Shown here piece after piece: positions 4,222-34,785 of a DNA stretch of 64,000 nt (the stretch's first letter is position 1; each line of letters begins with the position of its first letter). Made by a program: the position numbers and the translations under genes. Below the pieces are notes generated by a model. It saw only the letters and a program-made list of their open reading frames with translations, did not search any database and was not told the DNA's origin. This DNA is from an uncultured bacterium (GTDB lineage: Bacteria > Muiribacteriota > Ozemobacteria > Ozemobacterales > Ozemobacteraceae), in NCBI GenBank assembly GCA_937949615.1, contig CALEDQ010000008.1:827556-891555 (forward strand), read 5' to 3'.

Positions 4222-4224
4222 GGT

Positions 4225-5346: not shown

Positions 5347-5364
5347 TGTTCAGTGTCCTTTCGC

Positions 5365-7504: not shown

Positions 7505-7517
7505 AACATCTCCTGAA

Positions 7518-8177: not shown

Positions 8178-8191
8178 GGTTAGGTTCCTCC

Positions 8192-9091: not shown

Positions 9092-9103
9092 GATTGTGTC
9101 TCC

Positions 9104-9976: not shown

Positions 9977-9989
9977 GTTCAGGTCTACC

Positions 9990-11372: not shown

Positions 11373-11415
11373 GGAAAGACCTCCAAAACGACAGAATTGC
11401 ATTTACAAGCTAGTG

Positions 11416-18323: not shown

Positions 18324-19082
18324 TTAATTAGCCTTGATAACAACCGGATCAGCCGGATATTCGCCGGTCGAGCCGTTGGCCTTGCGGTCAGAATAATCTT
18401 TTATGCGGCTGTTGCCTGGAGAGACTCTGACAGTTGAAGATCCCGGATAAAATGCGGTGTCGCTTGCGAGATTGTTGAATTCAAGAAGAATTTCAGCAGC
18501 AGAAGCGGGAAAACTTGCCGGGCTGGCAAAAATACTGACTGCCACGTCTGAAGAAAACAAAAGATCACCGGCAGAGGGCGAAGCATTATCGTAAACAAGA
18601 GCGGTGTCAGACGCCGGAATAAAGCGTGAGAATTCAAGACGGAGCAGATCTTTCTGGCTTATCATACGGTTATTGTCGATGTCGACCCAGGTAGCGCGCT
18701 GCAGCGTCAACGGCGGTTTGTAATCAACGACGATATCATCGCGCTCGACACTGTTATCCGGGCCATTTGACTTAACCTGGCCCTTCAGCCAGTCGACTTC
18801 GTAATCGCGACCCCATGGGTCACGGGGCAGGTCCTGCAGGTAATGCCCGAGCAGTACGCGCAGGTCGGTTCCCTGGAATGGCCGTTCGGCCATTGTGTCA
18901 TGCTTAACCAGAGCCTCTTTGATGATATCAAGTTCGTGTTTGGCCTTGGCAAGACGCGACTGCCTTACATAATCCTGATAATAAGGCAGGGCAACGCCAA
19001 TCAGTATGGCGATGATGGTAACGACGATCAACAGTTCAATCAAAGAAAATGCTCGTTTATTCATGGTTGAAAATACTACCAT
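18324..19082 (-). CDS. Extended GspG-like pseudopilin (prepilin-type N-terminal cleavage/methylation domain), 252 aa
   Basis: The class-III leader plus hydrophobic helix is MNKRAFSLIELLIVVTIIAILIGVALPYYQDY. GspG core motifs DPWG and GPDNS are present. The shared linker is YKPPLTLQRATWVDIDNN...LRLEFSRF, followed by a variable C-terminal ~90 aa. The gene ends 2 nt from the start of the 934-aa ligase gene. Confidence 0.8.
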   Translation of the reverse strand: MVVFSTMNKRAFSLIELLIVVTIIAILIGVALPYYQDYVRQSRLAKAKHELDIIKEALVKHDTMAERPFQGTDLRVLLGHYLQDLPRDPWGRDYEVDWLKGQVKSNGPDNSVERDDIVVDYKPPLTLQRATWVDIDNNRMISQKDLLRLEFSRFIPASDTALVYDNASPSAGDLLFSSDVAVSIFASPASFPASAAEILLEFNNLASDTAFYPGSSTVRVSPGNSRIKDYSDRKANGSTGEYPADPVVIKAN

Positions 19083-19172: not shown

Positions 19173-21140
19173 TCATTTCTCAGTCTGGTTCAGATTGATG
19201 CGGTTGGCGGCGATACCCATACCAAGAAGGCCCCAGAAAACCGGGGCAATGCCGACAATGCTGTCATTGAAAATTGCAGCGACCAGATACGCCACTATCG
19301 CAGCCATTATTCCAAGGCCTGCGATTTCAGATAAACTTTCAAATCGGCATTTCCAGTATATTTTTGCCGACTCCCGCAGATAAACCGCAAACAGTGCCAG
19401 AATCGCAAACAGCGAAATCATACCGGAGTTGATGGCAATCTGAAGATAAAGATTATGCGGCTTTTCGATCATGGTAAAGATACCACTCGGCCAGACCCGC
19501 AGTTTTCCAAGATAATCGTGATTGGGGAAATGGAAAGCGAAAGTATCAGGGCCATAGCCGACCAGCAAAGTCTTTTTGAGCATGGGCAGCGTTCGCGACC
19601 AGATATACCCGCGATTGCTGGCCAGGCCCTGACAACCGGCAAAACCAAATGCTTCGACTTCCTGAACATCGACCGGTTTACCAAACTGATTGATCAGCTT
19701 GAAGCCCCTATCAGTGTTCACCACATAAAAACTGACGCCGCCACGCCCGATTTCGAAAACATTGTATTCAGGCCAGGCATAGATAAGAAAGCCACGCATC
19801 TTTTTTTCAGGAAAAATCAGCAGATACTCTTTTGAAGTGAAGAAACCACGGCCGGTTCCTGAGGCAGTTTCGCTTCCGGTTGTCGTTACAGCGACAGGTG
19901 TTACCGCCTGATTTCCGGGCAGCGACTGGAAAATGCTCGTCGAGCTGCTCGCCAGTGCGGTAAAAGAAGCGAGCGGCGATTTATTGTCAGTTCTCAGATG
20001 CGGGTTAGGTAAAAGACTGTAGTTAACCAACTCCCCTTTGTGATCGTAGAACTCGACCTGCTCATTGTTCAGTCTGACTTCAGTTTTCAGGTCGTCGAAA
20101 ACGAACGAGAATGAATCGGTGGCCAGCTTGAGATCCTGAAAATTGCCAAAAAGATTGTTTCTGACCTCTACGGGTCTGGCGATAGAAGTTTCAAGAAATC
20201 TAGGCACTTCTTTTTCTTTCCAGGTAAAGGCATCCATGGCGAACGGCATCAGGGAGAAGCACAATAGAAGCAGAGCCAGCCGCCGCTTGCGCGCCCAGAC
20301 TTCGCGCCAGACGAAAGGAAGCAAGATTAAAGCTGCAATTACAGCACCGAGAAAACCGGCCCTCGATTTGGAGCCGAGCAGATTGCAGAAAATCAGCAGA
20401 TTGATCGGTATCAGGGCAAATTTCAGGCGGTTGTTAACGAGCAAAGCCAGCGCGAAAGTCAGGGCGAAAAGCATGGCCATGTAGCTGCCGGTGAAGTTGC
20501 CGTTGCCAAAGGTCAGAAAAATCGAATGCATACTGCCTTTCAGCTGGCTGAGATTGATGCCGGGCTGCAGCTGCCGCACTTTTTCAGGCACGATAAGCCA
20601 GTCAGCCATTTCAGAATACAAAAAATTGGCACCCAGAAACTGGGCAACGCCGGCAATCGCAAGAATTGTGGCTGAGACCAGCAGCATGCCCAGCAGAATT
20701 TTAAGCTCCCGCCGCGTTTCGGTCAGGTTGATAAAGAGAAAAATGATGCTCATGTAGCTGAGATGCACGAGCATTCCCTCGTGTCGGTGCGGATCGCCGA
20801 AGAACGCAATCTGCCAGTGGTCGGCAAAAATCGTCGAGACAATGATGAAAAAGCTGTATACAGCAAGAGGCCGATGATACCAATTTGCGGTTGTTACACG
20901 GTTACATCGATACCACGCCAGCGCTGTCGCCGCCAGAATACAGGTCCATACCGATTTATAGAAAGAAAACAGATCGCCCTGAATCGAAGGCCCATAAGTC
21001 TCAGCAGCGGCGCCTTCAAAGGTCACCAGCCGCATATAAACTATCATAGGCAGCAACCCGATGATCGCACCCATCAGCAGTAGCGGCAATGCCGAAACCG
21101 GTCTTGTCGGAACAGACTTTTCTTCTAAAGATTCGCTCAC
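19173..21140 (-). CDS. O-antigen ligase/PglL-like membrane protein with a ~200-aa periplasmic insert (655 aa)
   Basis: Polytopic. It carries GNGNFTG, SRAGFLGAVIAAL and GYGPDTF....EKPHNLYLQIAINSGMIS (GxGxxxF...H-N-x-Y-L-Q). It is a paralog of the 21232-23271 product. The start codon is GTG. Confidence 0.75.
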   Translation of the reverse strand: MSESLEEKSVPTRPVSALPLLLMGAIIGLLPMIVYMRLVTFEGAAAETYGPSIQGDLFSFYKSVWTCILAATALAWYRCNRVTTANWYHRPLAVYSFFIIVSTIFADHWQIAFFGDPHRHEGMLVHLSYMSIIFLFINLTETRRELKILLGMLLVSATILAIAGVAQFLGANFLYSEMADWLIVPEKVRQLQPGINLSQLKGSMHSIFLTFGNGNFTGSYMAMLFALTFALALLVNNRLKFALIPINLLIFCNLLGSKSRAGFLGAVIAALILLPFVWREVWARKRRLALLLLCFSLMPFAMDAFTWKEKEVPRFLETSIARPVEVRNNLFGNFQDLKLATDSFSFVFDDLKTEVRLNNEQVEFYDHKGELVNYSLLPNPHLRTDNKSPLASFTALASSSTSIFQSLPGNQAVTPVAVTTTGSETASGTGRGFFTSKEYLLIFPEKKMRGFLIYAWPEYNVFEIGRGGVSFYVVNTDRGFKLINQFGKPVDVQEVEAFGFAGCQGLASNRGYIWSRTLPMLKKTLLVGYGPDTFAFHFPNHDYLGKLRVWPSGIFTMIEKPHNLYLQIAINSGMISLFAILALFAVYLRESAKIYWKCRFESLSEIAGLGIMAAIVAYLVAAIFNDSIVGIAPVFWGLLGMGIAANRINLNQTEK

Positions 21141-21231
21141 AAAATGCCTCGCAGAAACGGTTGTAAAATCAATAGCATTTAATCAGCTGCGAGGCAAGCT
21201 TTGAATAGCAGCAGTAATTCACAGTGCAGCT

Positions 21232-23271
21232 CTATTGCACAACCGGCGGAGTAAGAGGTTCAGCCTTGTTTCTGGTCAGGTTTTCCATAACCATACGGTT
21301 TGTGGCAAGCCCCAACCCGAGCAAACCCCAGAAAACCGGAGCGGTTCCCACCATACTGTCATTGAAAAAACCATTAACCAGATAACTGAAAATTGCCACA
21401 AAAATTGCAGCACCAGAAACACTAAGATAATCATTCAAATCGATTCTAAAATATAGATAGGCCGAATTGAATAAATACCTTACCCAGAAAATCAATATTG
21501 CTATCAGCGCAATAATCCCATTGTTAAAAGCAATCTGCAGATAAAGACTGTGGGGCTTTTCGATCAGAAGGTTCATCCCCTGAATCCAGTGTCTAAGCTT
21601 GCCAAGATGATCATAATTCGGGAAATGGGCAATGAAGGTATCCGGACCATAACCCAGCAAAACAGCGTGCTTCAGCAAAGGCAATGTTCGAGACCAGATA
21701 TAGCCACGGCCACTTCCAAAACCCTCCATTCCCTTGAATCCCCATGATTCAACTTCTCTTATTACAGCCGGCTTCCCTCTATGATTCAACAATTTAAAAC
21801 CATTTTCACCATAAGACAGAAAAAAAGTCACGCCGCCCCGACCGATTCTTAGAATATTTCTGTGCGGCCAGATATTGATAATAAAACCGCGCAATCTGTT
21901 TTCAAGAAATTCTACCAGCTGTGGATGACCAAGAAAAAGCTCTTCGGAAGATATCACAGGAGCAGAAAAAGTAGCATTACCTGTTTTATTGGCAGATTCT
22001 TTATACTCTTCATGCTCTTCACCAAGTAGAAGCTTGGTTTCGTCAAGCATCATAAAGACAGGTTTTCCCAAAGAACTGCCTGAAGCTGATTGAGCAGCAA
22101 GAGAAGCGCTTGAAGTGGCAGACCCACGTTTTAACAGTTTAAAAGCTACAGGCGCTCCAGTCGAATCAAAAAACTCAAGCTCTCCGGCATCAGATTTGAT
22201 CTTTAATTTTACCTGGTCAAATATTACTTCCGCAGAATTTCCATTTAAAATCAAGTCTTTAAAGACTCCATAGCTCCCCAGCGAATAAATCAGAGGCCTG
22301 CCAAAAGAAGAAGAAAAAAATCGTGTCTGTCCATTTCGCAAAGAATGTGCATCCATAACGAATGGAATCAAAGAGAAACAGGCGATTATGATTAAAAGCG
22401 ATCCAATCTGATTTTTAAGTCTTTTCCGAAAAAGAAGAATACAAAAAACACCACCGAGCATACCCGCCAAAATCGCTGATCTGGCGACACAACCGAGCAT
22501 GACGATGTAAAGGACAAGGCAGAGTGCTGCAACACAAAACTTTTTCCAGCCTCGCAAGTTAAGAAAAAACGAAAACGCAAGCGGGAACAGCATCGATACA
22601 TAAATACCCGTATAATTACTGTTGCCAAAAGTGGCAAAAATCGTTTCTGTCGATTTTTGAATTTTTTCAAGTGCGTAAGCCGGCATTATTTCTTTAATAC
22701 GGCCTGGAATCAGTATCGACGTCCCAAGCTCTGAGAAAAAATAATCAAACCCAAAAAATTGCGAGGTTCCAACAATTGCAATTATTAAAGCCGATGCCAG
22801 CAAAGATTTCATTAAGAAATTAGATGTGGAAACATTTCGAACAATGTTAAGAAAAAGAAGCAGAATGGCCATGTAACACAAATTGACAATAAGCCCCTCG
22901 TGGCGCTCCGGGTCTCCCCACAAGGCCAGGCGCCAATGAACAGCAAACACCGTAGACAGTATCGCTGCGGTGGAATAAACAACCAGCAGGCGCGAGTAGA
23001 CGAAATTACCGCCTCGATGAAAAAGAAACCATAAAACAGAAGCTCCTGAAAGGAGAATTATCCAAACCATCTTGTACCAGGTAAAAAAATCAGTATTGAA
23101 ATCTTTGGCAAATATTTCCCTGGAAATCCCCTCGTAAGGAACAATACGAAGATATACAATCAACGGAACAAGGCTGATTATAGCAGCTAAAAGAGCCTTA
23201 ATTAAAAAAGTAGGCTCAGCTTCTCCCTGCGAAGAATCATCGCGCAAATTGGCATTTTCAAAATTTTGCAT
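21232..23271 (-). CDS. O-antigen ligase/PglL-like membrane protein with a periplasmic insert (679 aa)
   Basis: HWRLALWGDPERHEGLIVNL, GNSNYTG and GYGPDTFIAHF...EKPHSLYLQIAFNNGIIAL match the paralog at 19173-21140 and the ligase motif. The start lies 10 nt after the stop of the upstream pseudopilin gene. Confidence 0.75.
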   Translation of the reverse strand: MQNFENANLRDDSSQGEAEPTFLIKALLAAIISLVPLIVYLRIVPYEGISREIFAKDFNTDFFTWYKMVWIILLSGASVLWFLFHRGGNFVYSRLLVVYSTAAILSTVFAVHWRLALWGDPERHEGLIVNLCYMAILLLFLNIVRNVSTSNFLMKSLLASALIIAIVGTSQFFGFDYFFSELGTSILIPGRIKEIMPAYALEKIQKSTETIFATFGNSNYTGIYVSMLFPLAFSFFLNLRGWKKFCVAALCLVLYIVMLGCVARSAILAGMLGGVFCILLFRKRLKNQIGSLLIIIACFSLIPFVMDAHSLRNGQTRFFSSSFGRPLIYSLGSYGVFKDLILNGNSAEVIFDQVKLKIKSDAGELEFFDSTGAPVAFKLLKRGSATSSASLAAQSASGSSLGKPVFMMLDETKLLLGEEHEEYKESANKTGNATFSAPVISSEELFLGHPQLVEFLENRLRGFIINIWPHRNILRIGRGGVTFFLSYGENGFKLLNHRGKPAVIREVESWGFKGMEGFGSGRGYIWSRTLPLLKHAVLLGYGPDTFIAHFPNYDHLGKLRHWIQGMNLLIEKPHSLYLQIAFNNGIIALIAILIFWVRYLFNSAYLYFRIDLNDYLSVSGAAIFVAIFSYLVNGFFNDSMVGTAPVFWGLLGLGLATNRMVMENLTRNKAEPLTPPVVQ

Positions 23272-23281
23272 ATGATAAGAC

Positions 23282-23995
23282 TCAGAGAGGCTTTATGAGA
23301 ACCGGCGAATCATTTTTGCATGGTTTGCCATCGCCATCCACTATTTTACAGTCGCTTTTCACAGAAAGAGTGTCAACACCAACTAAGAATGGCGATGACG
23401 GCCCAAAGTCCAGTGTAACCTTGACCATCATATCATGTTCTCCATATTCGATTGATTGATAAGGATTACCCGGCGCGCCATTCGAATAAACGAAGTCATC
23501 GTCTGCAATCGGTGCGAGAACCGGCCCATCGACTGCCAGTCTACGAAGAGGCCGGGTAAACTTGACCTTTAATTTATCGCCAGTATCTACGATCTGAGAC
23601 TTATTTGAGTCTTCCCAGAAAACACGGGAAATCGCAAGAGGGGGGCGAAAATAAAGAGCTATTTCATCGCCGGTTCCGGCCAGCCTGTCAGGCCCGGTTG
23701 AATAACAGGTAGATGACGCCGGCGAAACCATATATGAAACACCCCATGGGTCTGCCATGCCTTTATTCAAATAAGATCCAATAAGCCGATGTAAACCATT
23801 CTCGGTATAAGACGTCTCCTGGTCAGATTCAAAACGCATCAAAGCATTTCTAATTTCTGTTAAGTCCTGCTTTGCTTTTGTCAGGCGGGCCTCTTCGACA
23901 TAATGCTGCACGAATGGAAGTACCGCTCCCACAAGAATGGCGATAATCGTGATTATAATAAGGAGTTCCAGCAGGGTGAAAGCATTTTTTTTCAT
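23282..23995 (-). CDS. Extended GspG-like pseudopilin, 237 aa
   Basis: MKKNAFTLLELLIIITIIAILVGAVLPFVQHYVEEARLTKAKQDL, then DPWG and TGPDRLAG. The shared linker is FRPPLAISRVFWEDSNKSQIVDTGDKLKVKFTRPL, followed by a variable tip. An A8 homopolymer sits in codons 2-4. Confidence 0.8.
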   Translation of the reverse strand: MKKNAFTLLELLIIITIIAILVGAVLPFVQHYVEEARLTKAKQDLTEIRNALMRFESDQETSYTENGLHRLIGSYLNKGMADPWGVSYMVSPASSTCYSTGPDRLAGTGDEIALYFRPPLAISRVFWEDSNKSQIVDTGDKLKVKFTRPLRRLAVDGPVLAPIADDDFVYSNGAPGNPYQSIEYGEHDMMVKVTLDFGPSSPFLVGVDTLSVKSDCKIVDGDGKPCKNDSPVLIKPL

Positions 23996-24003
23996 TGGTT
24001 CCG

Positions 24004-24040
24004 CCTAAAAAAATAAGCCCTCTGGCAAAGCCAGAGGGCA
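24004..24040 (-). terminator. Rho-independent terminator between two pseudopilin genes
   Basis: Stem gccctctggc (24017-24026) pairs with gccagagggc (24030-24039) around an aaa loop. On the minus strand it is followed by TTATTTTTTTT. It begins 8 nt past the TGA stop of the 24047-24784 gene. Confidence 0.65.
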
Positions 24041-24046
24041 ATTCCA

Positions 24047-24784
24047 TCACTTAAGAGGCTTGATCGAATATTCGTTTGCGTTACATTCGTTCGGAGTAGG
24101 AGTAACCTGATCGCGCAAACTGCCGTTTCTAACATAGTAAAGAGCATCGCGACCAGAGACGAAAGAAGTTGAAGGAATACCACCAAAGGTGAGAACTGCT
24201 TCACGTGCTCCAGTACCCATAGCACATGTAATTGTCACGCCGCCCATCATAGCTGCGATAGTGCCAGTTGTTCCATTGATATTAACGCCCCAGTCAGCAT
24301 TGTCCATACCGCCAACATCAGTGGTAGAAACCGGTCTTGAGAATCTTACGCGCAGAGAGTCGTTGGTTGTAACAGAAGCTGAGTTGTCGGCATCAACAAA
24401 GAACACCTTGGTAACGGCAAGAGGAGCTCTGAAATCAACATTGATGTCATCACCCTGACCATCATTGTCAACTCTGTTAGCGCCCCATGAGCGAATCTGA
24501 CAGTCATTGTTAATTACCTGATAAGGAACGCCCCATGGGTCTGTAATAGCCTTGCCAAGATAAGCACCGACGAGAGGAGTGATTGTGGCATCAGTGTATT
24601 CAGTGCCACGATCGAGTTCGTAGCGGGTAAGAGCGTTCTTGATTTCGTTCATATCGGCTTTTGCAGTTGCGATACGAGCGTCTTCGACATAATCCTGCAC
24701 ATAGGGGATCGCGGCGCCGGCGAGGATTGCGATGATCGTGATGACGATCAACAGTTCAATGAGAGTAAAACCTTTTCTAAGCAT
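24047..24784 (-). CDS. Extended GspG-like pseudopilin, 245 aa
   Basis: Start moved to the second ATG (MLRKGFTLIELLIVITIIAIL), which has an AGGAGG Shine-Dalgarno 8 nt upstream. DPWG is present, and the linker is FRAPLAVTKVFFVDADNSASVTTNDSLRVRFSRPV. The C-terminal tip is variable. Confidence 0.8.
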   Translation of the reverse strand: MLRKGFTLIELLIVITIIAILAGAAIPYVQDYVEDARIATAKADMNEIKNALTRYELDRGTEYTDATITPLVGAYLGKAITDPWGVPYQVINNDCQIRSWGANRVDNDGQGDDINVDFRAPLAVTKVFFVDADNSASVTTNDSLRVRFSRPVSTTDVGGMDNADWGVNINGTTGTIAAMMGGVTITCAMGTGAREAVLTFGGIPSTSFVSGRDALYYVRNGSLRDQVTPTPNECNANEYSIKPLK

Positions 24785-25004
24785 GTACATGCCCTCCTGT
24801 AAATTATGATCTTATCAGATCTGAATCACCCAACAGACTTTTGCAGTGGGTTTTGCCGCCCACCTACGGCGTCTTCACCAGTCATTCAGTTTTGGCAGCT
24901 GCAGCGACACAACACACCTCACTGCCCGGCACCTCCTGGTCTTCGAGATTCCGTTTTTCTGAAATCATTCAGATACTTCGTAAAACCAACCTGTCTAAGT
25001 TGTA

Positions 25005-25021
25005 AGCAAAAGCTGTACCAA
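25005..25021 (-). promoter_or_regulatory. Sigma-54-type promoter candidate (TGGTAC-N5-TTGCT) upstream of the 24047-24784 gene
   Basis: The minus strand reads TTGGTACAGCTTTTGCT. The GG (-24) and GC (-12) elements are separated by exactly 10 nt as in the TGGCAC-N5-TTGCW consensus. It lies 8 nt after the upstream gene stop and ~220 nt upstream of the ATG. Confidence 0.4.
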
Positions 25022-25028
25022 CTTTAAA

Positions 25029-25775
25029 TCACTGCGGCAGAATTGTTACATTCTGACTGCTGAGACAGTAGTTTTTGTCTGGAGACTGGTCGAAGATCGT
25101 GTTATGACCGTCTGTTACCACAACATAGTCGCCACCAAGAGTGAAAGCATTGTTTGCAGCCACTTTATACACCAGAACCTTGCTTGAACCAACCAGAGTC
25201 GGACCGTATGTTGGCGAAACGCCAACCAGACCAGGCTGCAAAACCGTGACTCCATTGAGATAAAGGTTAAGACCAATGCTGGTAATCCCAACTCCACTTC
25301 CAAGCTTTCGGCTGAAAGCAAGGTGCAGCTCATCACTAACATTCTGGGTATCTACTGCTCCAGACTGGTTTTTGTCTACCCATTTGGCACTCACAAGAGC
25401 AAGCGGCGGCTGATAAGGCACGCTGATATTGTCATATTTGTCTTCATCAGCATCAGTATCAATACCAGAACGGTCGGGCCCGAGGGAAAAGACAGTCCCT
25501 CTCTCAGGAGAAACAACATAGGCAGAACCCCATGGGTCAATCGGGGATTTATTCAGGTAACGACCTGTAAGATCGCCGACGTCTTCCTTGGTGTATTCAC
25601 CTTCTCTGGTCTCATAAACTGCCAGAGCGCGGGCAACTTCTTCAAGGTCGGTCTTGGCCTTGGCAATACGTGATTCTTCAACGTAGTTCTGAACATACGG
25701 CAGTGCAGCCCCGGCCAGTACCGCGAGAATGGTTATGACAACCAGAAGCTCTATCAAAGTAAAACCTTTTTTCAT
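25029..25775 (-). CDS. Extended GspG-like pseudopilin, 248 aa (tandem paralog)
   Basis: MKKGFTLIELLVVITILAVLAGAALPYVQNYVEESRIAKAKTDLEE, then DPWG and LGPDRSG. The linker is YQPPLALVSAKWVDKNQSGAVDTQNVSDELHLAFSRKL. A GAAGGA Shine-Dalgarno is present. The N-terminal ~150 aa are near-identical to the 25800 paralog. Confidence 0.85.
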   Translation of the reverse strand: MKKGFTLIELLVVITILAVLAGAALPYVQNYVEESRIAKAKTDLEEVARALAVYETREGEYTKEDVGDLTGRYLNKSPIDPWGSAYVVSPERGTVFSLGPDRSGIDTDADEDKYDNISVPYQPPLALVSAKWVDKNQSGAVDTQNVSDELHLAFSRKLGSGVGITSIGLNLYLNGVTVLQPGLVGVSPTYGPTLVGSSKVLVYKVAANNAFTLGGDYVVVTDGHNTIFDQSPDKNYCLSSQNVTILPQ

Positions 25776-25799
25776 TTTAATCCTTCTTTCAAATTCAGT

Positions 25800-26546
25800 T
25801 TATTGTGGCAGAATGTAAACTTTCTGACTGCTCAAACAATAATTTTTCGGAGCTGCAACGTCAAAAATCTCGCCATGACTGTCGGTCACGATCAAATAAT
25901 CCTGGCCAACGGTAAAAACAGGGTTAGCGGCCACTTTGTATACAAGCACTTTGCTTGCACCGACAACTGTCGGCCCATAGGGGGTCACACCAACCACCAT
26001 CGGGCTCACGCCCGAGGACAATTTGGTAGCAGAGTTCAAGTAGATATGATCACCAAAATTTGTTATGGTAACAGCGCCCAGTTTGCGACTGAAGGTAAGA
26101 TGGAGCTCGTCGCTGACGTTCTGCGTGTCAACCGCACCCGACTGGTTTTTATCGACCCATTTGGCACTTACCAGGGCAAGCGGCGGCTGGTAAGGAACAT
26201 TGATATTATCGTAATTATTGGAATCACTGCCATCCAGGCGGTCAGGGCCTTTGGAATAAACAATGCCGTTGCTCGAGGAAACAATGTATTCTGAACCCCA
26301 CGGATCGATGGGCGATTTGTTCAGGTAACGACCAGTAAGATCTGAAACGGTAGTCTTGGTGTATTCGCCTTCACGAGTCTCGTAGATGGCGAGAGCACGG
26401 GCAATCTCTTCGAGGTCAGTTTTGGCCTTGGCAAGACGCGACTCGGCAACGTAGTTCTGCACGTAAGGCAGAGCAGCGCCGGCGAGAATTGCCAGAATGG
26501 TAATGACCACCAGCAGTTCAATAAGTGTGAAACCTCTTCTCAACAT
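25800..26546 (-). CDS. Extended GspG-like pseudopilin, 248 aa (tandem paralog)
   Basis: MLRRGFTLIELLVVITILAILAGAALPYVQNYVAESRLAKAKTDLEE, then DPWG and KGPDRLDG. The linker is identical to the 25029 paralog over YQPPLALVSAKWVDKNQSGAVDTQNVSDELHL. An AAGGAG Shine-Dalgarno is present. Confidence 0.85.
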   Translation of the reverse strand: MLRRGFTLIELLVVITILAILAGAALPYVQNYVAESRLAKAKTDLEEIARALAIYETREGEYTKTTVSDLTGRYLNKSPIDPWGSEYIVSSSNGIVYSKGPDRLDGSDSNNYDNINVPYQPPLALVSAKWVDKNQSGAVDTQNVSDELHLTFSRKLGAVTITNFGDHIYLNSATKLSSGVSPMVVGVTPYGPTVVGASKVLVYKVAANPVFTVGQDYLIVTDSHGEIFDVAAPKNYCLSSQKVYILPQ

Positions 26547-26573
26547 AAAAATGAAATCTCCTTTAGAGAATTG

Positions 26574-27311
26574 TTACCTGGATGACGTTATCGTCACGTT
26601 TTGACTGGTAATGCAATAATTGGCTGTACCCGGCGCCCGGTCACGAATGCCGGAGCCGTCATAAACCCACAGAGAGTCGCTGCCAGGGCCAAAAACGTTT
26701 TCGAGGCCATTATCAACGGCGACCGTCATGACATTACCAGATGAATCAAGCTTCAGAGAGCTCCAGTCCATGGCGGTGGTTATGCTGGGCGCGGTCCAGC
26801 GGAAATACTTGTGCGCCTCATCAGGCGAAACCAACGCCGGGCTGGTGGCCACAATCTTTCTTGAAAACATCAGCTGCAGATAATCACTGACATTCTGGGT
26901 ATCTACCGCCCCGGAATTATTGGCATCGACCCACTTTACAGAGACAAGAGCCAGCGGCGGCTGATAGCTCACGGTGATATCGTCGAGATTATTGTCAATA
27001 CGGTCCGGACCACTCGAAAAGACAACGCCGGCGCCGGTTGCGACCACATAAGACTTACCCCACGGGTCGATAGGCGATGAATTAAGGTAGCGGCCGGTCA
27101 ACAGCCGCAAAGTCGAGTCATTGTAAGTACCCTCTCTGGTTTCATAAACCGCCAGGGCTCTCTTGATCTCTTCAAGATCAGATTTTGCTTTCGCAATGCG
27201 GCTCTCAGCCACATAATTCTGCACATAGGGAAGCGCTGCTCCCACCAGAATGGCGAGAATCGTAATTACCACCAGCAGTTCGATCAGCGTAAAACCAGAT
27301 CTTTTAAGCAA
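26574..27311 (-). CDS. Extended GspG-like pseudopilin, 245 aa (tandem paralog; TTG start)
   Basis: The TTG start is preceded by GGAGGG at 4-nt spacing. The product is LKRSGFTLIELLVVITILAILVGAALPYVQNYVAESRIAKAKSDLEE with DPWG and SGPDRIDN. The linker is YQPPLALVSVKWVDANNSGAVDTQNVSDYLQLMFSRK. The C-terminal tip is divergent. Confidence 0.8.
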   Translation of the reverse strand: MLKRSGFTLIELLVVITILAILVGAALPYVQNYVAESRIAKAKSDLEEIKRALAVYETREGTYNDSTLRLLTGRYLNSSPIDPWGKSYVVATGAGVVFSSGPDRIDNNLDDITVSYQPPLALVSVKWVDANNSGAVDTQNVSDYLQLMFSRKIVATSPALVSPDEAHKYFRWTAPSITTAMDWSSLKLDSSGNVMTVAVDNGLENVFGPGSDSLWVYDGSGIRDRAPGTANYCITSQNVTITSSR

Positions 27312-27440
27312 TTTTCCCTCCAGAACTCGTACCTGATCTTAAAAAGTAACCCAGTAACACAGCTTAGTCAACTTTTACCGAATCTTTTCAAATTATAAAT
27401 AAATATTTCTTTATCTTTTATAAGAATTTTATTCTCAACC

Positions 27441-27456
27441 CGCAAGCAATGTACCT
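27441..27456 (-). promoter_or_regulatory. Sigma-54-type promoter candidate (aGGTAC-N5-TTGCg) upstream of the tandem pseudopilin genes
   Basis: The minus strand reads AGGTACATTGCTTGCG, with GG/GC spacing as in the consensus. It lies ~130 nt upstream of the TTG start at 27311 and shares the GGTACA core with the 25005-25021 candidate. Confidence 0.4.
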
Positions 27457-27687
27457 TTTTTTCAATTCACAAAGACTCGCAGACATCACCCTAAAAAGAC
27501 TAGAAGAAGAACCTGACCACACAACACATTACATCAATTCAGACAATCCGATTTAAAACAAAACACACACATGTGATTTTTTCACACCTTCAAGCCGAGG
27601 AATTTCGCACATTCAACCGTGAGGCAACCCAGCCTCACAAAGGAATTTTTCCCCGGAATAATACAGAATTTTTTATCATTACAAATT

Positions 27688-28446
27688 TCATTTTTTACGT
27701 TTTTCAATCACCAGGTTATCAACCCGGCCAAGGCGCTGGGGTTTGGGCGAATAGTCAACAATAGATTCAATATATTCACGTGGGAACAACCTGGTTTGCC
27801 CCGGAACCAAAGTCGGCGCAATCGGTGGCGCAAAATCGATTCTTGCCTTGAAATAGTTGTCACCAGGCCTTACAACTGCTGAACCCAGGGCCTTTTTCGG
27901 CAAATCGGTTTCAAAATCGATACCCAGCGGATCTTTCAACTGTGCCGGCCGCGAAAAAGTCAGCTCGATATAATCACTGATATCAACCAGATTGTTCAGA
28001 TTAACATCGACATACTCAGCCCTGGTAACAAAAAAGTTCTGTGGCAGGTAATAAACGGCGATATCATCACTCTCTGAAGCGACATTAGTCGTCTGAGGTC
28101 TTCCATCAGGGCCGCAGGAAAAAACTACACCCTGCTTTACGTCATGCAGGTAATATACTCCCCAGGGGTCACGCGGTGGTTCCTTTTCAAGATATGTTCC
28201 GATAAAGGTTCCGAGAGCCTGCGGCGAAAAAACCTCTGTCTCAAACTGTCTTGATTCCTTGATGTTATAGAGACGCACCGCCTTAACCAGCTCATCGATA
28301 TCGGCGCGGGCGCGGGTAATTCGGGTGCTGGCAATATGGCGACGGTATTCCTCAAGTGCGAAAATCAGCAGGGCAGAAATGATCAGCAGGGTTACCAGCA
28401 ACTCTATCAGAGCGAAACCCTTGGCAAACCTGCGGTTCATTGGCAC
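27688..28446 (-). CDS. Extended GspG-like pseudopilin, 252 aa
   Basis: MPMNRRFAKGFALIELLVTLLIISALLIFALEEYRRH, then PRDPWG and CGPDGRPQ. The linker is YYLPQNFFVTRAEYVDVNLNNLVDISDYIELTFSRPA. The C-terminal tip is variable. Confidence 0.8.
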   Translation of the reverse strand: MPMNRRFAKGFALIELLVTLLIISALLIFALEEYRRHIASTRITRARADIDELVKAVRLYNIKESRQFETEVFSPQALGTFIGTYLEKEPPRDPWGVYYLHDVKQGVVFSCGPDGRPQTTNVASESDDIAVYYLPQNFFVTRAEYVDVNLNNLVDISDYIELTFSRPAQLKDPLGIDFETDLPKKALGSAVVRPGDNYFKARIDFAPPIAPTLVPGQTRLFPREYIESIVDYSPKPQRLGRVDNLVIEKRKK

Positions 28447-28582: not shown

Positions 28583-30466
28583 TCAGTCAAGACCAACGGT
28601 TACAGAATCCTGCGATGGAACTTCTTCGTCGAGATAATCGACGTTGACCAGTCTCGGAGTGACCAGCATGATCATTTCAGAATTGTTGGTCTTGTTGTTA
28701 TTATGAGTCAAAAGTGTCTTCAGCAGAGGAACTTTATTGAGAAGCGACGGCGAGTTTTTCTGCTCAGAGCCCTGATGATTGATAAGACCGCCAAGCACTA
28801 CCGTTTCGCCGTTCTTGATGCGGACATAGGTCTGGGTATTTCTTTCTGAGCGATGGATCTGACCGTCTTCGTTGATATTGAGAACTGAGTCAACGGTGGT
28901 GTTGAGCTCCATGCTGATTTCGTTGTCACGAGTGATCTCGGGAGTAACTTCGAGTCTGATACCAACTTGAACGTCGCGGTATTCTTTATACACCTGGGGA
29001 GTATATCCCAGGTAACTGTTACTGGCGTTTTCATATCTGAAATACGGCACCGGAATCACTTCGCCGATATTGATCGAGGCTTTTTTACCATGCACAGCCC
29101 TGATCTTCGGGCTGGCAAGCACCTTCGCCTTGCTTTCCTGTTCAAGGAAATCGAGAGTGGCAGGCAGAGCGTAATTGCTGGGCAGACGACCGATATCGCC
29201 GACGTTGATCTTGTAGCCATCGAGCTTGATACCAAGCTGACGCAGGCTGGTGCGGTTGATTTCGACCAGTTTAACTTCGATAACCGCCTGTTTAACTTTC
29301 TCATCGACGCTTTCGATGATTTTTTCAATCAGGTTGAGGTTTTCGACCGTGTCATATACAGAGAGAGTATTGATTCTTTCGTTCAGCGAGAAGTTACCGG
29401 TGTCGATCTTTTCAGCGAGCGACTTGCTGCTGCTGATCATTTTAACGACTTCTTCAGGCTTGGCATTGATCAGTTTGAACGTGCGATACTGCTTCTTGCC
29501 AAATTCACTGGCGCTGTCCTTGGCCAGAATGACGAAGGTATTGTCGTTGTGAGGCTTCTTCACCAGTCCGTTGGTTTCGATCAGCAGATCGAGAAGCTCA
29601 TCGAGATTGAGGTTTTCGACATAAAAATTAACCTGTTTGTCTTCAACGCTTTCATGAATGATGAGGTTGATGTTCATCATTTTCGACAGAGTCTGCAGCG
29701 CGTCCTTAAGACTCAGATCGCGGAAAAGGAGCTCACGTGCCATTCTGCTGCTGTCAGTGCCGAGCGAAATAACCGTCAGATCGCGCCCCTTGAGGGTATA
29801 CTGAAAGTTTCTCTGCAGAAGCAGGTTTTTGAGGATTTCGCGCAAAGTCACATCCTGTGCATTAACGCTGAATTTCCCCTTAACGCCTGAATCGGCAAAA
29901 ATTCTCAGGTTGAATTTGACCGCCAGGGCGTTAAGAATAGTCATAAGATCTTCCTGATCGAAGCTCAAACTGACTCTCGCATCGAGCACGCTTGCTGAAC
30001 TTCCTGAAAAAGCGGCCATTTCAGCGGCGTTTCCGGCAGCAACCTTTGCAAGCGGTGAAGTTTCTAGAACCAGGTTTCGGTCGACCCTCCTTGGACTGAC
30101 CTTAAGTGGTTCATTAAAGACGATAATCGCCCTGACAACGTCGGGGCGTGTGCTTACCTGACTGATACGCATAAATTTCACCAGCGAATGTGGAGCGGGG
30201 ATAATAGTGCTGGCAGCGGCGAATTCCCAGTCATAAAAATCGGCGCGGACAACTTCCGGAGCTTCCATGGTTACGTTGAATTCCTTTACTTCATGTGCAG
30301 GAAACAGCACCATGCCATTGGCCCCATATCCGGCAATTTTCAGCTCGGTCAGCTTTTCAGCTGCTCCTGCCGGCATACTTATAATAACCGCCAGCAGAAA
30401 AACCAGAGCCAGCCGCACATTACAGCACGTGTGCCGCAGGTCTCTGCAGTTTTTTAGAAACTTCAT
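28583..30466 (-). CDS. Secretin (PilQ/GspD family) with N-terminal AMIN/STN-like domains
   Basis: Start set at the ATG with an AAGGAG Shine-Dalgarno (MKFLKNCRDL..., signal peptide). The central region has N0/N1-like domains. The C-terminal secretin domain includes ETVVLGGLINHQ...KVPLLKTLL...MIMLVTPRLV. Confidence 0.85.
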   Translation of the reverse strand: MKFLKNCRDLRHTCCNVRLALVFLLAVIISMPAGAAEKLTELKIAGYGANGMVLFPAHEVKEFNVTMEAPEVVRADFYDWEFAAASTIIPAPHSLVKFMRISQVSTRPDVVRAIIVFNEPLKVSPRRVDRNLVLETSPLAKVAAGNAAEMAAFSGSSASVLDARVSLSFDQEDLMTILNALAVKFNLRIFADSGVKGKFSVNAQDVTLREILKNLLLQRNFQYTLKGRDLTVISLGTDSSRMARELLFRDLSLKDALQTLSKMMNINLIIHESVEDKQVNFYVENLNLDELLDLLIETNGLVKKPHNDNTFVILAKDSASEFGKKQYRTFKLINAKPEEVVKMISSSKSLAEKIDTGNFSLNERINTLSVYDTVENLNLIEKIIESVDEKVKQAVIEVKLVEINRTSLRQLGIKLDGYKINVGDIGRLPSNYALPATLDFLEQESKAKVLASPKIRAVHGKKASINIGEVIPVPYFRYENASNSYLGYTPQVYKEYRDVQVGIRLEVTPEITRDNEISMELNTTVDSVLNINEDGQIHRSERNTQTYVRIKNGETVVLGGLINHQGSEQKNSPSLLNKVPLLKTLLTHNNNKTNNSEMIMLVTPRLVNVDYLDEEVPSQDSVTVGLD

Positions 30467-30567
30467 AAGCCGCTCCTTAATCAAATGATCAATTGCAAAA
30501 AAATTAATATCCCCGTTACATCATTCGACATCTGCAAAACAAAACTTTATAGCAAATTAAAAATTTG

Positions 30568-30616: not shown

Positions 30617-31777
30617 TTACATGGCCGGCTGAGTTGCGCCTGTTGAACCGCCCGAAACGACACGGGCCATACGAAAAATCGGCAGATACATCGCCAGTAC
30701 GATAACACCGACAATAGCACCAATAACAACAATGAAAGCCGGCTCAACCAGTGCCGTGATCTGATCGATCAAGAAATTGATTTCGTCTTCGTAAAATTCA
30801 GCAACCTTCTCCAACATTTCATCGAGATTACCAGATTCTTCACCGACCTCGATCATCTGAGTCGACAGCTCAGGCATGATCTCGACCTTGGCCAGAGCCC
30901 TCGATATCGGAATACCACCCTCAACTTCTTTAACAACGTCGTCGAGAGATTCCTGGATAATCATATTTTCAACGGCTTCATTACTGATCTTCATCGCAGA
31001 AATAATATTGATGCCCGACTCGAAAAGCGTCGCCAGGTTTCTGGCATAAAGAGCAATGATGTATTTCTGCAACAGACCTCCGAAAACAGGCAACTTCAGC
31101 TTGACCCAGTCGAAAAAGTGACGCCCGGAACGGGTCTGATCGATCTGAAAAAGAATGATAAAAAAAGCCAGGCCGGCAGCAAAAAGCAGCAGAAGATTGT
31201 TTCCGATAAAACCTGAAAAATTGATCACCTGCTGGGTCAGCCAGGGCAGTTCTTGATTGAACTGGGTAAACAGATTGGCAAACTGCGGAATGACGAACAG
31301 CATCAGGAACATGACGACCAGAGCTGCCACCGCAGAAATGATCAACGGATAGGTCATCGCCCCGATAACGCGGCGACGAATAGATATCTGCCGTTCCATA
31401 AGCTTGGTCAGGCGGTCGAGGACCATGACCAGTCGACCAGACTCTTCGCCAACCTTTATCAGATTCGAATAGAGCATGCCGAAAATATCATCGTGCTTTT
31501 TAAAACACATATGCAGAGGCATGCCGCCTTCTACTTCGGTCTTGGAATCCCAAATGATTTTTCTGAAGCGCCAGGTCTTCATCTGACGCGAAAGGGTGCC
31601 CAGTGACCGCAAAACCGAAATACCGGCACGGGAAAGGGTAGTGAAATATTTAGTGAACAACAGGCGCTCACTCAGCCCGATATTACCGTAAAACGGGTTC
31701 AGATATGACAGAACCGGCCGGTTCTCTTCTCCTGGACCCTCTTGCCTGACATCTTCATTAGTGTTTAAATCTACCAT
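30617..31777 (-). CDS. gspF: Type II secretion / type IV pilus platform protein GspF/PilC family
   Basis: 386 aa with the typical duplicated GspF cytoplasmic domains (LLFTKYFTTLSRAGISVLRSLGTLS ... LYARNLATLFESGINIISAMKI) and three TM segments. Confidence 0.85.
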   Translation of the reverse strand: MVDLNTNEDVRQEGPGEENRPVLSYLNPFYGNIGLSERLLFTKYFTTLSRAGISVLRSLGTLSRQMKTWRFRKIIWDSKTEVEGGMPLHMCFKKHDDIFGMLYSNLIKVGEESGRLVMVLDRLTKLMERQISIRRRVIGAMTYPLIISAVAALVVMFLMLFVIPQFANLFTQFNQELPWLTQQVINFSGFIGNNLLLLFAAGLAFFIILFQIDQTRSGRHFFDWVKLKLPVFGGLLQKYIIALYARNLATLFESGINIISAMKISNEAVENMIIQESLDDVVKEVEGGIPISRALAKVEIMPELSTQMIEVGEESGNLDEMLEKVAEFYEDEINFLIDQITALVEPAFIVVIGAIVGVIVLAMYLPIFRMARVVSGGSTGATQPAM

Positions 31778-31810: not shown

Positions 31811-32233
31811 TTACCACGGCATCTCAGTACCATTTAATTTTATTCTGACATCGCGAATCTGTTTTCCGGCAGGAACAAGTTCCTGATCTGCCCAGAGATA
31901 AACCCGTTCATAAAAGCTAACCGTATCAAGACTTGAATTGTATTCAAGACGCAGCTTTGCATCTCCGGCAAGAGGTGTGATGAGAACCGATTCGACAGAT
32001 TGCTGCAGATACGGCCCCTCAAGCAATTTCAGACTGGTCGGGTATGCCATGTTATCTTTAAAATATCGGGAAATTGCATCGCGAACAATCTTCAGATTGG
32101 TTCTCGCAGTGTTTTCCCGGGCTTCCGGCAGAATGTCGGCATAATAGTTATAGCCGACCCCGGCGAGGACGGCTATTATTGCAACCACGATCAGCATTTC
32201 CATGAGGGTGAAGCCCCCACGCTGTCTATTCAT
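31811..32233 (-). CDS. gspG: Type II secretion major pseudopilin GspG (canonical size, 140 aa)
   Basis: MNRQRGGFTLMEMLIVVAIIAVLAGVGYNYYADILPEARENTARTNLKIVRDAISRY. The prepilin leader has G at -1 and E at +5. Its start overlaps the stop of the upstream Wza-like gene by 8 nt. Confidence 0.85.
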   Translation of the reverse strand: MNRQRGGFTLMEMLIVVAIIAVLAGVGYNYYADILPEARENTARTNLKIVRDAISRYFKDNMAYPTSLKLLEGPYLQQSVESVLITPLAGDAKLRLEYNSSLDTVSFYERVYLWADQELVPAGKQIRDVRIKLNGTEMPW

Positions 32234-33086
32234 CTCTAACCATCATCACTGTCTGTTCGGCCGGGCCCTTGAAGTCAACTACCTGACGGTGCTGACGATA
32301 GCCCTTGCGCTTCAGAGTAATTTCTCCAAATTCTTTTTTGATCAGGCTGATCTTGAAAGACCCCTGTCGGTTGGTTGAAACCTTCGCATCGTCGAGCAGA
32401 ACTTCAACATTCGGAAGCGGCTGGCGGGTAAAGGCATCTACAACAGTGATTGTAACAGAGTCTGCGAGTTTGATTGGCTTCAGGTAGATTTTCGACGGGT
32501 TCCCGGCCTTGAGCATCTCTTCTAACTGACCAGCAGCAGTTGAGAAACCATCAGCAATGATGACCACATAACCGGAACTCTCGTCAAGCAGAATCTGACC
32601 AAGACGGTTCGACTGATAGATCTTGTTACCGAGCATCATGGCGACATCTGCAATACCGTTTCTGGAACCAGCATCGACGATTTCAACAAGAACCTGTCGG
32701 TCTGCAGCCGGAGCTGAAGCGGCGTTGTCGGCACCTGCCGGAGAAACCGGTGCAGTGTCACTCTTGGCGACTGCTTTTGCCGAACCTTTGCCTTTAAGAG
32801 TTACCTGAACCAGAGGGTCTTTTAGATAGCCATCTTCAAGCATCTGCGAGATCAGACGGGCTGCGTCGGTAGTTTTCATACCAGTGACACCAACAGAACC
32901 GATCAAGGGCATAATGATGCTTCCGTCTCTGCCTACCTGTCTCTCTACCGACAGTTCTGGTTCACCTTTGACCCAGATACTGATGGTATCACCGGCCCCA
33001 AGCAAAGCGGGCGCGGCCGCATTAACCAGGCCAGACGCGCTTACCAGGCCGATGAAAATAAAGATTAACCACTTAATTTTGTTCAT
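32226..33086 (-). CDS. Periplasmic polysaccharide export protein (Wza/OPX-like Poly_export domain) with a C-terminal carboxypeptidase-regulatory-like beta domain
   Basis: A signal peptide precedes a Poly_export signature GDTISIWVKGEPELSVERQVGRDGSIIMPLIGSVGVTGMKTTDAARLISQMLEDGYLKDPLVQV. An Ala-rich linker follows. The C-terminal VEVLLDDAKVSTNRQGSFKISL...GYRQHRQVV resembles a CarboxypepD_reg-like domain. There is no C-terminal amphipathic helix. Confidence 0.7.
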   Translation of the reverse strand: MNKIKWLIFIFIGLVSASGLVNAAAPALLGAGDTISIWVKGEPELSVERQVGRDGSIIMPLIGSVGVTGMKTTDAARLISQMLEDGYLKDPLVQVTLKGKGSAKAVAKSDTAPVSPAGADNAASAPAADRQVLVEIVDAGSRNGIADVAMMLGNKIYQSNRLGQILLDESSGYVVIIADGFSTAAGQLEEMLKAGNPSKIYLKPIKLADSVTITVVDAFTRQPLPNVEVLLDDAKVSTNRQGSFKISLIKKEFGEITLKRKGYRQHRQVVDFKGPAEQTVMMVRDE

Positions 33087-33330: not shown

Positions 33331-34785
33331 TCAGTGCTGTTTGCGGGCTGATGAGCTCGGAATATTCAATTCGATGCGATACTTGGCAACTGTGCGGCGG
33401 GCAAGAAAAATACCGTCTTTTTTCAGCAAATCTACGATATGACTGTCAGAAAGAGGTTTTTTGGGGTTCTCTGCCTTTACCAGGTCGTCAATGCGTTTCT
33501 TGACAGCCATCGTTGACACGTCTTCACCGCTCTGAGTCCGAGCCGCGCCTGAAAAGAAAAACTTCAGTTCGAAAAGACCGCGCGGCGTCTGCACATATTT
33601 GCCGCTGGTGGCGCGGCTGACCGTCGACTCATGCACGCCGGCCATGCCGGCGACATCCTGAAGGGTCAGGGGCTTGAGATGCAGAATACCAAAGTCGAGA
33701 AAGTCGCGCTGTACTTCACAGATGGCACGGGTAACGCTGAGAATTGTCTCTTTGCGTTTATCGACATATTTAAGAAAAGACCTGGCGGCTTCGAGTTTGT
33801 TGCGAATGAACTCGTAGGTCTCTTTCTCAGTTTTATCGCGGTGTTTCATCGCATCTTTGTAAAGGTTGTTGATACGCAGCCGCGGCAGATCACGTTCATT
33901 CATGGTGACAACATACTCATCGTCGACTTTTTCAACAAAAACTTCGGGCGAAACATAGATTTCGTCGCCAGTTGAAGGAAAACTTGCGCCAGGCTTCGGG
34001 TTAAAGCCTTTGATGATCTCGACCGCGGCCTGCACATCTTCAAGCTCGAAACCAGTGGCCTTAATGATATTGTTGATGCGATTCTGGGCGAGATCTTCAA
34101 GATGACTGGAAATAATTGCAGTCACGGCGTCATCACCATATCCCTCTTCGTGGGCCTGAATGAGCAGACATTCACGCAAATCGAAGGCCCCTACCCCGGC
34201 CGGATCCATGGTTTGAATCGCCTTGCGAATTCTCTCAACCACGGCAGTATCAACCTTCAACAGCTCAGAAATCTGCTCGCTGGTGTGCCTGAGATAGCCA
34301 TTGCGGTCGATCAGACCGATCAGATATTCACCGATCTTCTGTTCGGTCGGATTGAGGTTGACCTCACGCAGCTGAGTAGTCAGATGTTCGCGCAGATTGC
34401 TTTTTTTCGAGACGAAATTTTCGAATGATGTTTCTTCGTCGCGATTGTAGCTGCCTGAAGAAATTTTGAACTCTGAATGTTCGTTATCTTCAATATATCT
34501 CTGCCAGTCGACACCAAAATCATCACGACCGGCTTCTTTGAATTCGCGTGACGGCGGCCCGGCTTCCGGAAGCTTCTCGCCAAGTTTTTCGAGCGGCAGT
34601 TCGTTCTGCTTGGCCGACTTCTCATCAAGTTCAACGACCGGATTGGTTTCAAGCACCTCGAGAATCTGATTTTTCAGCTCAACGCTGTTAAGCTGCAGAA
34701 TCTTGATCGCAAGCTGCATCTCCGGGGTCATTTTCAGGGTCTGGGTGAGCTTCTGAGACAACCCGAGTCTGAGTGAATTATCCAT
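33331..34785 (-). CDS. rpoN: RNA polymerase sigma-54 factor
   Basis: N-terminal region I is MDNSLRLGLSQKLTQTLKMTPEMQLAIKILQL. A C-terminal HTH and RpoN box are present (ARRTVAKYRIELNIPSSSARK). Length is 484 aa. Confidence 0.9.
   Translation of the reverse strand: MDNSLRLGLSQKLTQTLKMTPEMQLAIKILQLNSVELKNQILEVLETNPVVELDEKSAKQNELPLEKLGEKLPEAGPPSREFKEAGRDDFGVDWQRYIEDNEHSEFKISSGSYNRDEETSFENFVSKKSNLREHLTTQLREVNLNPTEQKIGEYLIGLIDRNGYLRHTSEQISELLKVDTAVVERIRKAIQTMDPAGVGAFDLRECLLIQAHEEGYGDDAVTAIISSHLEDLAQNRINNIIKATGFELEDVQAAVEIIKGFNPKPGASFPSTGDEIYVSPEVFVEKVDDEYVVTMNERDLPRLRINNLYKDAMKHRDKTEKETYEFIRNKLEAARSFLKYVDKRKETILSVTRAICEVQRDFLDFGILHLKPLTLQDVAGMAGVHESTVSRATSGKYVQTPRGLFELKFFFSGAARTQSGEDVSTMAVKKRIDDLVKAENPKKPLSDSHIVDLLKKDGIFLARRTVAKYRIELNIPSSSARKQH

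Follow-up and report, generated by a model that had tools for sequence, protein, structure and literature searches.

A Poly_export protein without OPX channel parts, encoded in a secretin operon of Ozemobacteraceae

Why would a docking domain of the polysaccharide-export machinery be encoded in an operon for a type IV filament that already has its own secretin? The question is raised by a stretch of 64,000 nucleotides (nt) from an uncultured bacterium of the Ozemobacteraceae (GenBank assembly GCA_937949615.1, contig CALEDQ010000008.1, positions 827,556 to 891,555; hereafter the window). Its minus strand encodes a 286-residue protein, here called PolyExp (Table 1). A preliminary description of the window had read PolyExp as an OPX (outer-membrane polysaccharide export) protein of the Wza type minus its C-terminal channel helix. 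It proposed that either a glycan or glycoprotein crosses the outer membrane through the secretin, or PolyExp has been repurposed as a periplasmic adaptor. We find that PolyExp represents a small, conserved family without the channel parts of OPX proteins, that its gene keeps its place beside the filament and secretin genes across relatives, and that its first domain occurs naturally fused to the N0 domains of a secretin. Synteny, gene overlap and this fusion strongly support a functional tie between PolyExp and the secretin machine. Of the two earlier proposals, the adaptor fits best, while passage of a glycan through the secretin is possible but less likely.

A Poly_export protein without channel parts

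The Pfam scan that the preliminary description had proposed confirmed the Poly_export signature of the 286-residue reading frame (PF02563, residues 24 to 97, E = 2.1e-19, 69.9 bits against a gathering score of 28). The AlphaFold2 (AF2) model has three well-folded domains (mean pLDDT, the per-residue confidence score, 84; pTM, the global fold score, 0.43), preceded by a hydrophobic N-terminal helix (residues 3 to 22) that is probably a Sec signal cleaved by signal peptidase I (SPI; VNA/AAP). No lipobox is found in any of 60 aligned homologues, and PolyExp itself has no Cys at all. The first domain (D1) has EpsE/pepcterm_export as its nearest NCBIfam matches and is followed by a linker that varies in both length and sequence between homologues. 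The other two domains, D2 and D3, are mutually homologous beta-sandwiches (hhalign 84%, E = 7.5e-6) whose best fold matches are transthyretin-like. D2 carries a family-specific invariant motif (YQSNRLGQ...ADG) and, in isolation, has no Pfam match even at E <= 10. Isolated D3 matches CarbopepD_reg_2 (E = 5.5e-7), and in the full-length protein residues 210 to 280 match CarbopepD_reg_2 and CarboxypepD_reg slightly under gathering (E ~ 1e-5). The C-terminal carboxypeptidase-regulatory-like domain described earlier is thus present, but there are two sandwiches, not one.

Full-length PolyExp has no Pfam match to Wza_C, GfcC (PF06251) or SLBB, and neither SLBB nor SLBB_2 matches isolated D2 or D3 at E <= 10. 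A hidden SLBB in the middle region was considered and rejected, as D2 and D3 reached a probability of only 0.2 to 0.3% in hhalign against an SLBB alignment taken from neighbouring OPX proteins, and both are modelled as all-beta sandwiches of seven strands. The channel helix is indeed missing. The protein ends in ...MMVRDE, is modelled as beta-strands up to its terminus, and has its stop codon (TAG, 32226 to 32228) within ATGAATAG, where it overlaps the next reading frame (ATG at 32233).

OPX proteins are defined by a Poly_export domain followed by at least one SLBB domain (PMC9603273). Class 1 adds Wza_C and class 2 adds GfcC, while class 3 lacks both and pairs with a beta-barrel porin of 18 strands (PMC9603273, PMC9601211). 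PolyExp has the Poly_export domain but no SLBB. The Wza_C helix of class 1 is absent from PolyExp and from its 60 homologues, all of which end in a beta-strand; the GfcC domain of class 2 (KpsD) is absent from PolyExp, as is the lipid anchor (signal peptidase II type) that occurs in WzaB and about half of class 3. Because Poly_export is the only defining feature present, we regard PolyExp as an OPX derivative and not as an OPX member. The earlier premise of an OPX protein lacking its helix was therefore too generous, since PolyExp also has no SLBB and is not a lipoprotein.

Comparison with well-studied OPX proteins makes the same point. Escherichia coli Wza (class 1; PDB 2J58) has a homologous D1 (Poly_export/PES) domain, but also two SLBB domains, an N-terminal lipid and the amphipathic Wza_C helix of its octameric outer-membrane pore, none of which PolyExp has. 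The Myxococcus xanthus proteins WzaB, WzaX/EpsY and WzaS (class-3/D1D2 OPX; PDB 9n9a) differ in their SLBB (D2), lipid anchor, Phe-Phe motif and adjoining 18-stranded beta-barrel, all missing from PolyExp, which has instead two transthyretin-like sandwiches and an operon of pilin, GspF and secretin genes. In WzaB, oligomerization is driven by lipidation, the porin is bound through the C-terminal Phe-Phe, and the polysaccharide co-polymerase (PCP) through Arg106-Arg107 in the alpha1-beta5 loop of D1 (PMC12819527). In PolyExp this loop reads EDGYLKDP and is the best conserved of the family (D85, G86 and P91 are invariant in the 60-sequence alignment). In a profile alignment to WzaB, the Arg-Arg motif falls on [KR]89-[DE]90.

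Could PolyExp simply be a truncated or frameshifted remnant of a normal Wza? Only its short length and missing helix would suggest so, and we give this explanation practically no credence. A search of 5.8 billion proteins returned 130 homologues with 39 to 93% identity, which are 278 to 330 residues long apart from one fragment of 196 residues, with nearly all spanning 89% or more of the query. All 60 aligned sequences agree in length and share one conserved C-terminus (...MVRNE/MVRDE), with 26 invariant columns spread across all three domains, which excludes a pseudogene; the confidently modelled fold of each domain also speaks against it. Nor can a helix be encoded past a frameshift, because the stop overlaps a conserved next gene and leaves no space for a helix in any frame. 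Both outcomes that the preliminary description had named as fatal to its reading can thus be set aside.

All named homologues belong to Candidatus Riflebacteria/Ozemobacteraceae. When 1.84 billion representatives were searched exhaustively with a profile, only ~15 full-length clusters at 50% identity emerged, the weaker matches comprising the Poly_export part alone or the sandwich part alone. Given so few clusters, the conserved C-terminus and the invariant columns, we consider the family small, phylum-restricted and under selection. Two variants were also seen: P0129 (423 residues) has an additional sandwich domain between D1 and D2, and P0142 (284 residues) has D2-D3 behind an unrelated N-terminus, without D1. 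In the open-access literature, on the pili and secretins of Riflebacteria among other subjects, we found no description of this family or of any link between Poly_export and secretins.

Conserved gene order and a natural fusion to N0 domains

PolyExp lies in a pseudopilus operon with its own secretin, as previously described, with GspF/PilC and secretin genes downstream of it; it stands at the head of this operon. The operon encodes the hallmarks of a type IV filament machine resembling type II secretion systems (T2SS) and type IV pili (T4P), namely prepilin-type pilins (N_methyl/T2SSG in eight open reading frames, ORFs), a GspF/PilC platform and a secretin. The reported 8-nt overlap with the next gene is also real, but the name gspG was loosely applied: with the GspG equivalog model, whose cut-off is 88.85, the 140-residue pilin scores only 39 bits.

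The same order, rpoN - PolyExp - pilin - gspF - secretin - pilins, is found in Ca. Ozemobacter sibiricus and Ca. Rifleibacterium amylolyticum, in which PolyExp is 47% and 58% identical, respectively. We scanned one genome per GTDB species, giving 34 loci; the following counts come from 37 loci, 30 of which extend past PolyExp. With tblastn, the order glmS - mutS2 - rpoN - PolyExp - (small pilin) - gspF - secretin could be followed down to 35% identity and is retained as far as the contigs reach. Either gspF or the small pilin comes next after PolyExp in 28 of the 30 loci that extend downstream; all 24 of those with enough sequence beyond it then have a secretin gene, and rpoN is upstream in every locus that reaches that side. 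PolyExp and the pilin gene overlap by 8 nt in 12 loci (the window included) and by 4 nt in five, and are separated by 0 to 11 nt in four. The small pilin is absent from four loci, which nevertheless retain the order PolyExp-gspF-secretin.

PolyExp is also linked to the secretin by natural protein fusions. P0181 (410 residues), a Poly_export match outside the PolyExp family, combines Poly_export with FecR_C/STN domains. Over its first 98 residues it shares 39% identity with the signal peptide and D1 of PolyExp (E = 6e-18), and over its residues 247 to 407 it shares 46% identity with residues 163 to 324 of the window secretin, which form two N0 domains (E = 1e-33). The sandwich between them is D3-like (hhalign 96%, E = 4e-9), not D2-like (42%). 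Three more clusters have the same full architecture, P0264 (68%), P0265 (49%) and P0266 (43%); a profile search for additional proteins of this type returned only the same four clusters. They represent a sister lineage within Riflebacteria and are 43 to 68% identical among themselves. All four proteins (403 to 423 residues) terminate directly after the second N0, without a pore. Because they are encoded on contigs from independent samples (at least six), they are not assembly chimeras. The fusion gene always lies between rpoN (65 to 68% identical to that of the window) and an orthologue of the window's Wzy_C + TPR (tetratricopeptide repeat) gene (46 to 60%), after which come SBP_bac_5 and ABC genes. 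Encoded ~8 kb away are orthologues of two other window proteins, the PCP (49%) and a 373-residue protein (75%). The AF2 model of P0181 is confident for D1, the sandwich and the second N0 (pTM 0.34, with disordered linkers), and Foldseek matches to the N0 domains of PilQ (4ar0) and LspD (7pmp) confirm the N0 fold. We also considered this model as a stand-in for a complex between PolyExp and N0, but with that pTM and disordered linkers it is uninformative on the interface.

Might this arrangement be nothing but inherited synteny? PolyExp would then be a short OPX protein of the ordinary, class-3-like kind, belonging to a polysaccharide pathway that is unrelated and served by an unlinked beta-barrel porin and PCP. 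It is true that class 3, without an outer-membrane-spanning domain, is the commonest OPX class and that ~30% of its members have SPI signals (PMC9603273). Furthermore, the gene persists outside the operon in two gut metagenome-assembled genomes (MAGs), and a PCP gene is present in the same window. However, PolyExp has neither the Poly_export + SLBB architecture nor a lipobox, and its C-terminus (MVRDE) is not aromatic and porin-binding like that of WzaB (FF). Neither the window proteins that were scanned nor the genes called in the relatives' flanks include an 18-stranded PgaA/AlgE-like porin, and the GfcD/EpsX-like partner beta-barrel that the preliminary description had suggested searching for is not encoded among those window proteins. 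A pilin overlap of 4 to 8 nt and a conserved N0 fusion are likewise hard to attribute to chance synteny. We therefore consider an ordinary OPX protein unlikely.

Possible roles at the secretin base

We favour a role for PolyExp as an OPX-derived periplasmic adaptor at the N0 base of the secretin, and put the chances of this at about even. That PolyExp works with the secretin base is suggested by its conserved operon position, its translational overlap and the selected fusion to the inner-membrane-proximal domains of a secretin. PolyExp would have arisen from a short OPX protein of the PEP-CTERM/EpsE type that lost all channel-forming and glycan-lumen parts (SLBB, Wza_C helix and lipid anchor) and was taken on as an accessory subunit dedicated to a type IV filament machine that is specific to Riflebacteria (pilins, GspF/PilC and secretin). 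The predicted product is secreted and non-lipidated and may resemble three beads, with D1 joined by its flexible linker to the two transthyretin-like sandwiches. At the periplasmic base of the secretin, the C-terminal sandwich end would dock onto the N0 domains or next to them. In true OPX systems D1 is turned to the inner membrane and binds the co-polymerase; here it would point to an inner-membrane partner. The order D1-sandwich-N0-N0 in the fusion proteins matches such a stack, with D1 towards the inner membrane (as in Wza and WzaB) and the sandwich abutting N0. PolyExp may in this way supply the coupling between secretin and inner membrane that GspC, PilP or GspB provides in classical systems.

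GspC, PilP and GspB (OutB) of T2SS and T4P are also periplasmic adaptors that are encoded with their secretin, bind its N0 and link it with the inner membrane, but they have a homology region (HR) beta-sandwich domain that is absent from PolyExp. As no genes for such adaptors accompany PolyExp (none of the window proteins scanned was GspC/L/M or PilM/N/O/P), the adaptor role in its operon is vacant. A GspE/PilB ATPase and a prepilin peptidase were also not among these proteins and are presumably encoded elsewhere. RcpC/CpaB of Tad pili is another periplasmic protein of multiple beta domains, with a gene directly upstream of that for the secretin, and is thought to form a ring beneath the secretin. 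It has SAF/beta-clip domains, no known Poly_export domain, and belongs to a different pilus class.

Several observations weigh against an adaptor at the secretin base. PolyExp is solitary in two gut/rumen Riflebacteria MAGs (L018:2052-3017 and L022:6984-7913), where no gspF or secretin gene was found within 8 kb and the neighbours are Band_7 genes or divergent murD-ftsW. The fusion loci have no pilins, GspF or secretin pore. Together, these loci mean that the function cannot strictly require co-expression with a complete machine. Furthermore, D2 and D3 are not of the HR type, the known N0-binding fold, and AF2 predicts no fixed interface in PolyExp or in the fusion. A comparison of evolutionary rates between PolyExp and the secretin, GspF and housekeeping proteins gave no excess covariation, but its power was low (15 taxa, crude pairwise distances, non-independent pairs), and we take it as uninformative and not as counter-evidence.

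Does PolyExp instead help to export a glycan through the secretin? It might then be an OPX-like funnel, whose D1 ring receives a glycan made or transferred by Wzy_C proteins and sized by the PCP, with the secretin as the outer-membrane exit; we regard this as possible but doubtful. Equally tentative is the corresponding view of the outer parts, in which the secretin would replace the helix barrel of Wza or the beta-barrel porin, the cargo would be free polymer or glycosylated pseudopilins, and the pseudopilus might serve as a piston. PolyExp could conceivably be the missing periplasmic link of such a hybrid pathway, with D1 docked on the co-polymerase and the sandwiches on the N0 ring, giving an exit to the Wzy_C/PCP glycan or to heavily glycosylated pseudopilins, though we would not expect it to be.

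A hybrid exporter has a bona fide Poly_export domain in its favour, and the nearest matches of D1 (EpsE/pepcterm_export) and of the window PCP (pepcterm_ChnLen) belong to one type of system. The operon holds three Wzy_C proteins, and the fusion lineage has no pilus genes at the locus but retains D1, sandwich and N0 domains together with Wzy_C + TPR and, 8 kb off, PCP. The loop of D1 that binds the PCP in WzaB (PMC12819527) is the most conserved of the family. There is also a precedent, since the secretins PilQ/GspD are required in exopolymer slime secretion, where the periplasmic coupling is not identified (PMC12475490). Like the present operon, slime secretion and the Hps pseudopilin locus of cyanobacteria tie secretins and pseudopilins to polysaccharide export, but no Poly_export protein is reported in them, and the cyanobacterial PilQ accessory is a pentapeptide-repeat protein (PMC12475490).

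Against export of a glycan stands the missing SLBB, the part of Wza that lines the lumen and cross-links the polymer. The twin-arginine motif of WzaB is only half retained, the PCP gene lies 28 kb from PolyExp in a separate gene group, and the fusion loci have no pore. The scanned window proteins also include no glycosyltransferase, Wzx flippase or initiating transferase. This fits a different use of the three Wzy_C proteins, which may be pilin O-oligosaccharyltransferases that borrow their precursors.

Censuses of OPX proteins require Poly_export together with SLBB and pair helix-less members with beta-barrel porins. The PolyExp family breaks both rules, and in it we see a Poly_export docking domain reused in a pilus or secretion machine, including by covalent fusion to secretin N0 domains. 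If PolyExp is an adaptor only, it would be a new, non-HR solution to the role of GspC/PilP in a poorly known phylum. Encoded in a secretin operon with Wzy_C enzymes, it is also a concrete candidate for the periplasmic coupling in secretin-dependent exopolymer secretion. Should the hybrid pathway prove true, PolyExp would stand for a fourth kind of OPX-type export architecture and offer a molecular handle on this form of secretion.

Neighbouring genes and minor observations

Table 1. Position of PolyExp, its parts and neighbouring genes in the window, and of the fusion genes at other loci
Feature	Position	Strand	Remarks
PolyExp gene	32226..33086	minus	286-residue, probably secreted Poly_export + 2x transthyretin-like protein; from ORF, Pfam, alignment and AF2
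Signal peptide	33018..33086	minus	Residues 1-23, MNKIKWLIFIFIGLVSASGLVNA/AAP; no lipobox Cys; predicted cleavage, from sequence
D1	32790..33017	minus	Residues 24-99 (30-99 in AF2); Poly_export/Wza-D1 fold, alpha/beta
Linker	32703..32789	minus	Residues 100-128; Ala/Pro/Ser-rich, disordered; AF2 pLDDT <50 for 103-127
D2	32466..32702	minus	Residues 129-207 (132-202 in AF2); 7-stranded beta-sandwich
D3	32229..32465	minus	Residues 208-286 (210-282 in AF2), protein end; CarboxypepD_reg/transthyretin-like beta-sandwich
PolyExp/small pilin overlap	32226..32233	minus	Stop/start overlap, 8 nt, ATGAATAG
rpoN	33331..34785		Directly upstream of PolyExp
Small (pseudo)pilin	31811..32233	minus	Prepilin-type, 140 residues, N_methyl; leader MNRQRG/GFTLME
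GspF/PilC-type platform protein	30617..31777	minus	Inner membrane; T2SSF, 191.8 bits
Secretin	28583..30484	minus	STN/N0 x2, Secretin_N, Secretin (122.4 bits); best NCBIfam match PilQ, under cut-off
N0 domains of secretin	29513..29998	minus	Two; matched by C-terminal half of P0181
Six GspG-like pseudopilins	23282..28446	minus	Tandem paralogues, 237-252 residues
Two Wzy_C membrane proteins	19173..23271	minus	Paralogues, 679 and 655 residues; O-antigen-ligase/polymerase/O-oligosaccharyltransferase superfamily
Prepilin-type protein	18324..19082	minus	252 residues
Wzy_C + TPR protein	15517..18321	minus	934 residues; TPRs C-terminal
PCP	2998..4221	minus	Wzz + GNVR, two transmembrane helices; nearest pepcterm_ChnLen; candidate inner-membrane partner of D1
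Fusion gene	L038:1917-3149		
Fusion gene	L041:3014-4285		
Fusion gene	L042:1535-2746		
Fusion gene	L044:1221-2450		

Each of the six tandem pseudopilins has a C-terminal extension of ~130 residues with no recognised fold. In R. amylolyticum, seven consecutive GspG-like pseudopilins are encoded. The spacing between gspF and the secretin gene, 130 nt in the window, widens to 1 to 1.4 kb at two other loci (L001:12642-13676 and L011:10494-11913), where the gap may contain a further small gene or an extended N-terminus of the secretin.

The 244-nt spacer between rpoN and PolyExp was considered as a promoter region and contains no convincing sigma-54 or sigma-70 site. Elsewhere, an intergenic match to the sigma-54 -24/-12 consensus with one mismatch (TGGTAC-N5-TTGCT, 25005 to 25020, minus strand) lies upstream of the pilin gene at 24047..24790. 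Counts of sigma-54 sites across the window are not above chance, and only the position of this match is suggestive.

Five of the loci (L008, L013, L028, L029 and L037) come from genomes labelled Erysipelotrichia, Methylomirabilis or Avigastranaerophilus. As they carry glmS-mutS2-rpoN-PolyExp-gspF in the order typical of Riflebacteria, with 62 to 89% identity, these contigs were probably mis-binned or the MAGs mislabelled.

The PCP gene belongs to a gene group on the minus strand (2998 to 11402) that also encodes a cytoplasmic 373-residue protein, a GlmL/MutL-type protein (PF13941), three ORFs without Pfam matches and a DUF6754 protein. The 373-residue protein has a region like a barrel-sandwich hybrid, and its gene is adjacent to that for the PCP at one of the fusion loci (L038) too. 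On the plus strand (47787 to 52271), a 1494-residue protein with CarboxypepD_reg, several PKD domains and one Big_7 domain is probably a large surface or secreted protein. At the window edge (1156 to 2937, minus strand) lies a gene for an N6-adenine DNA methyltransferase of the Eco57I/TaqI_C type, resembling type IIG restriction-modification enzymes.

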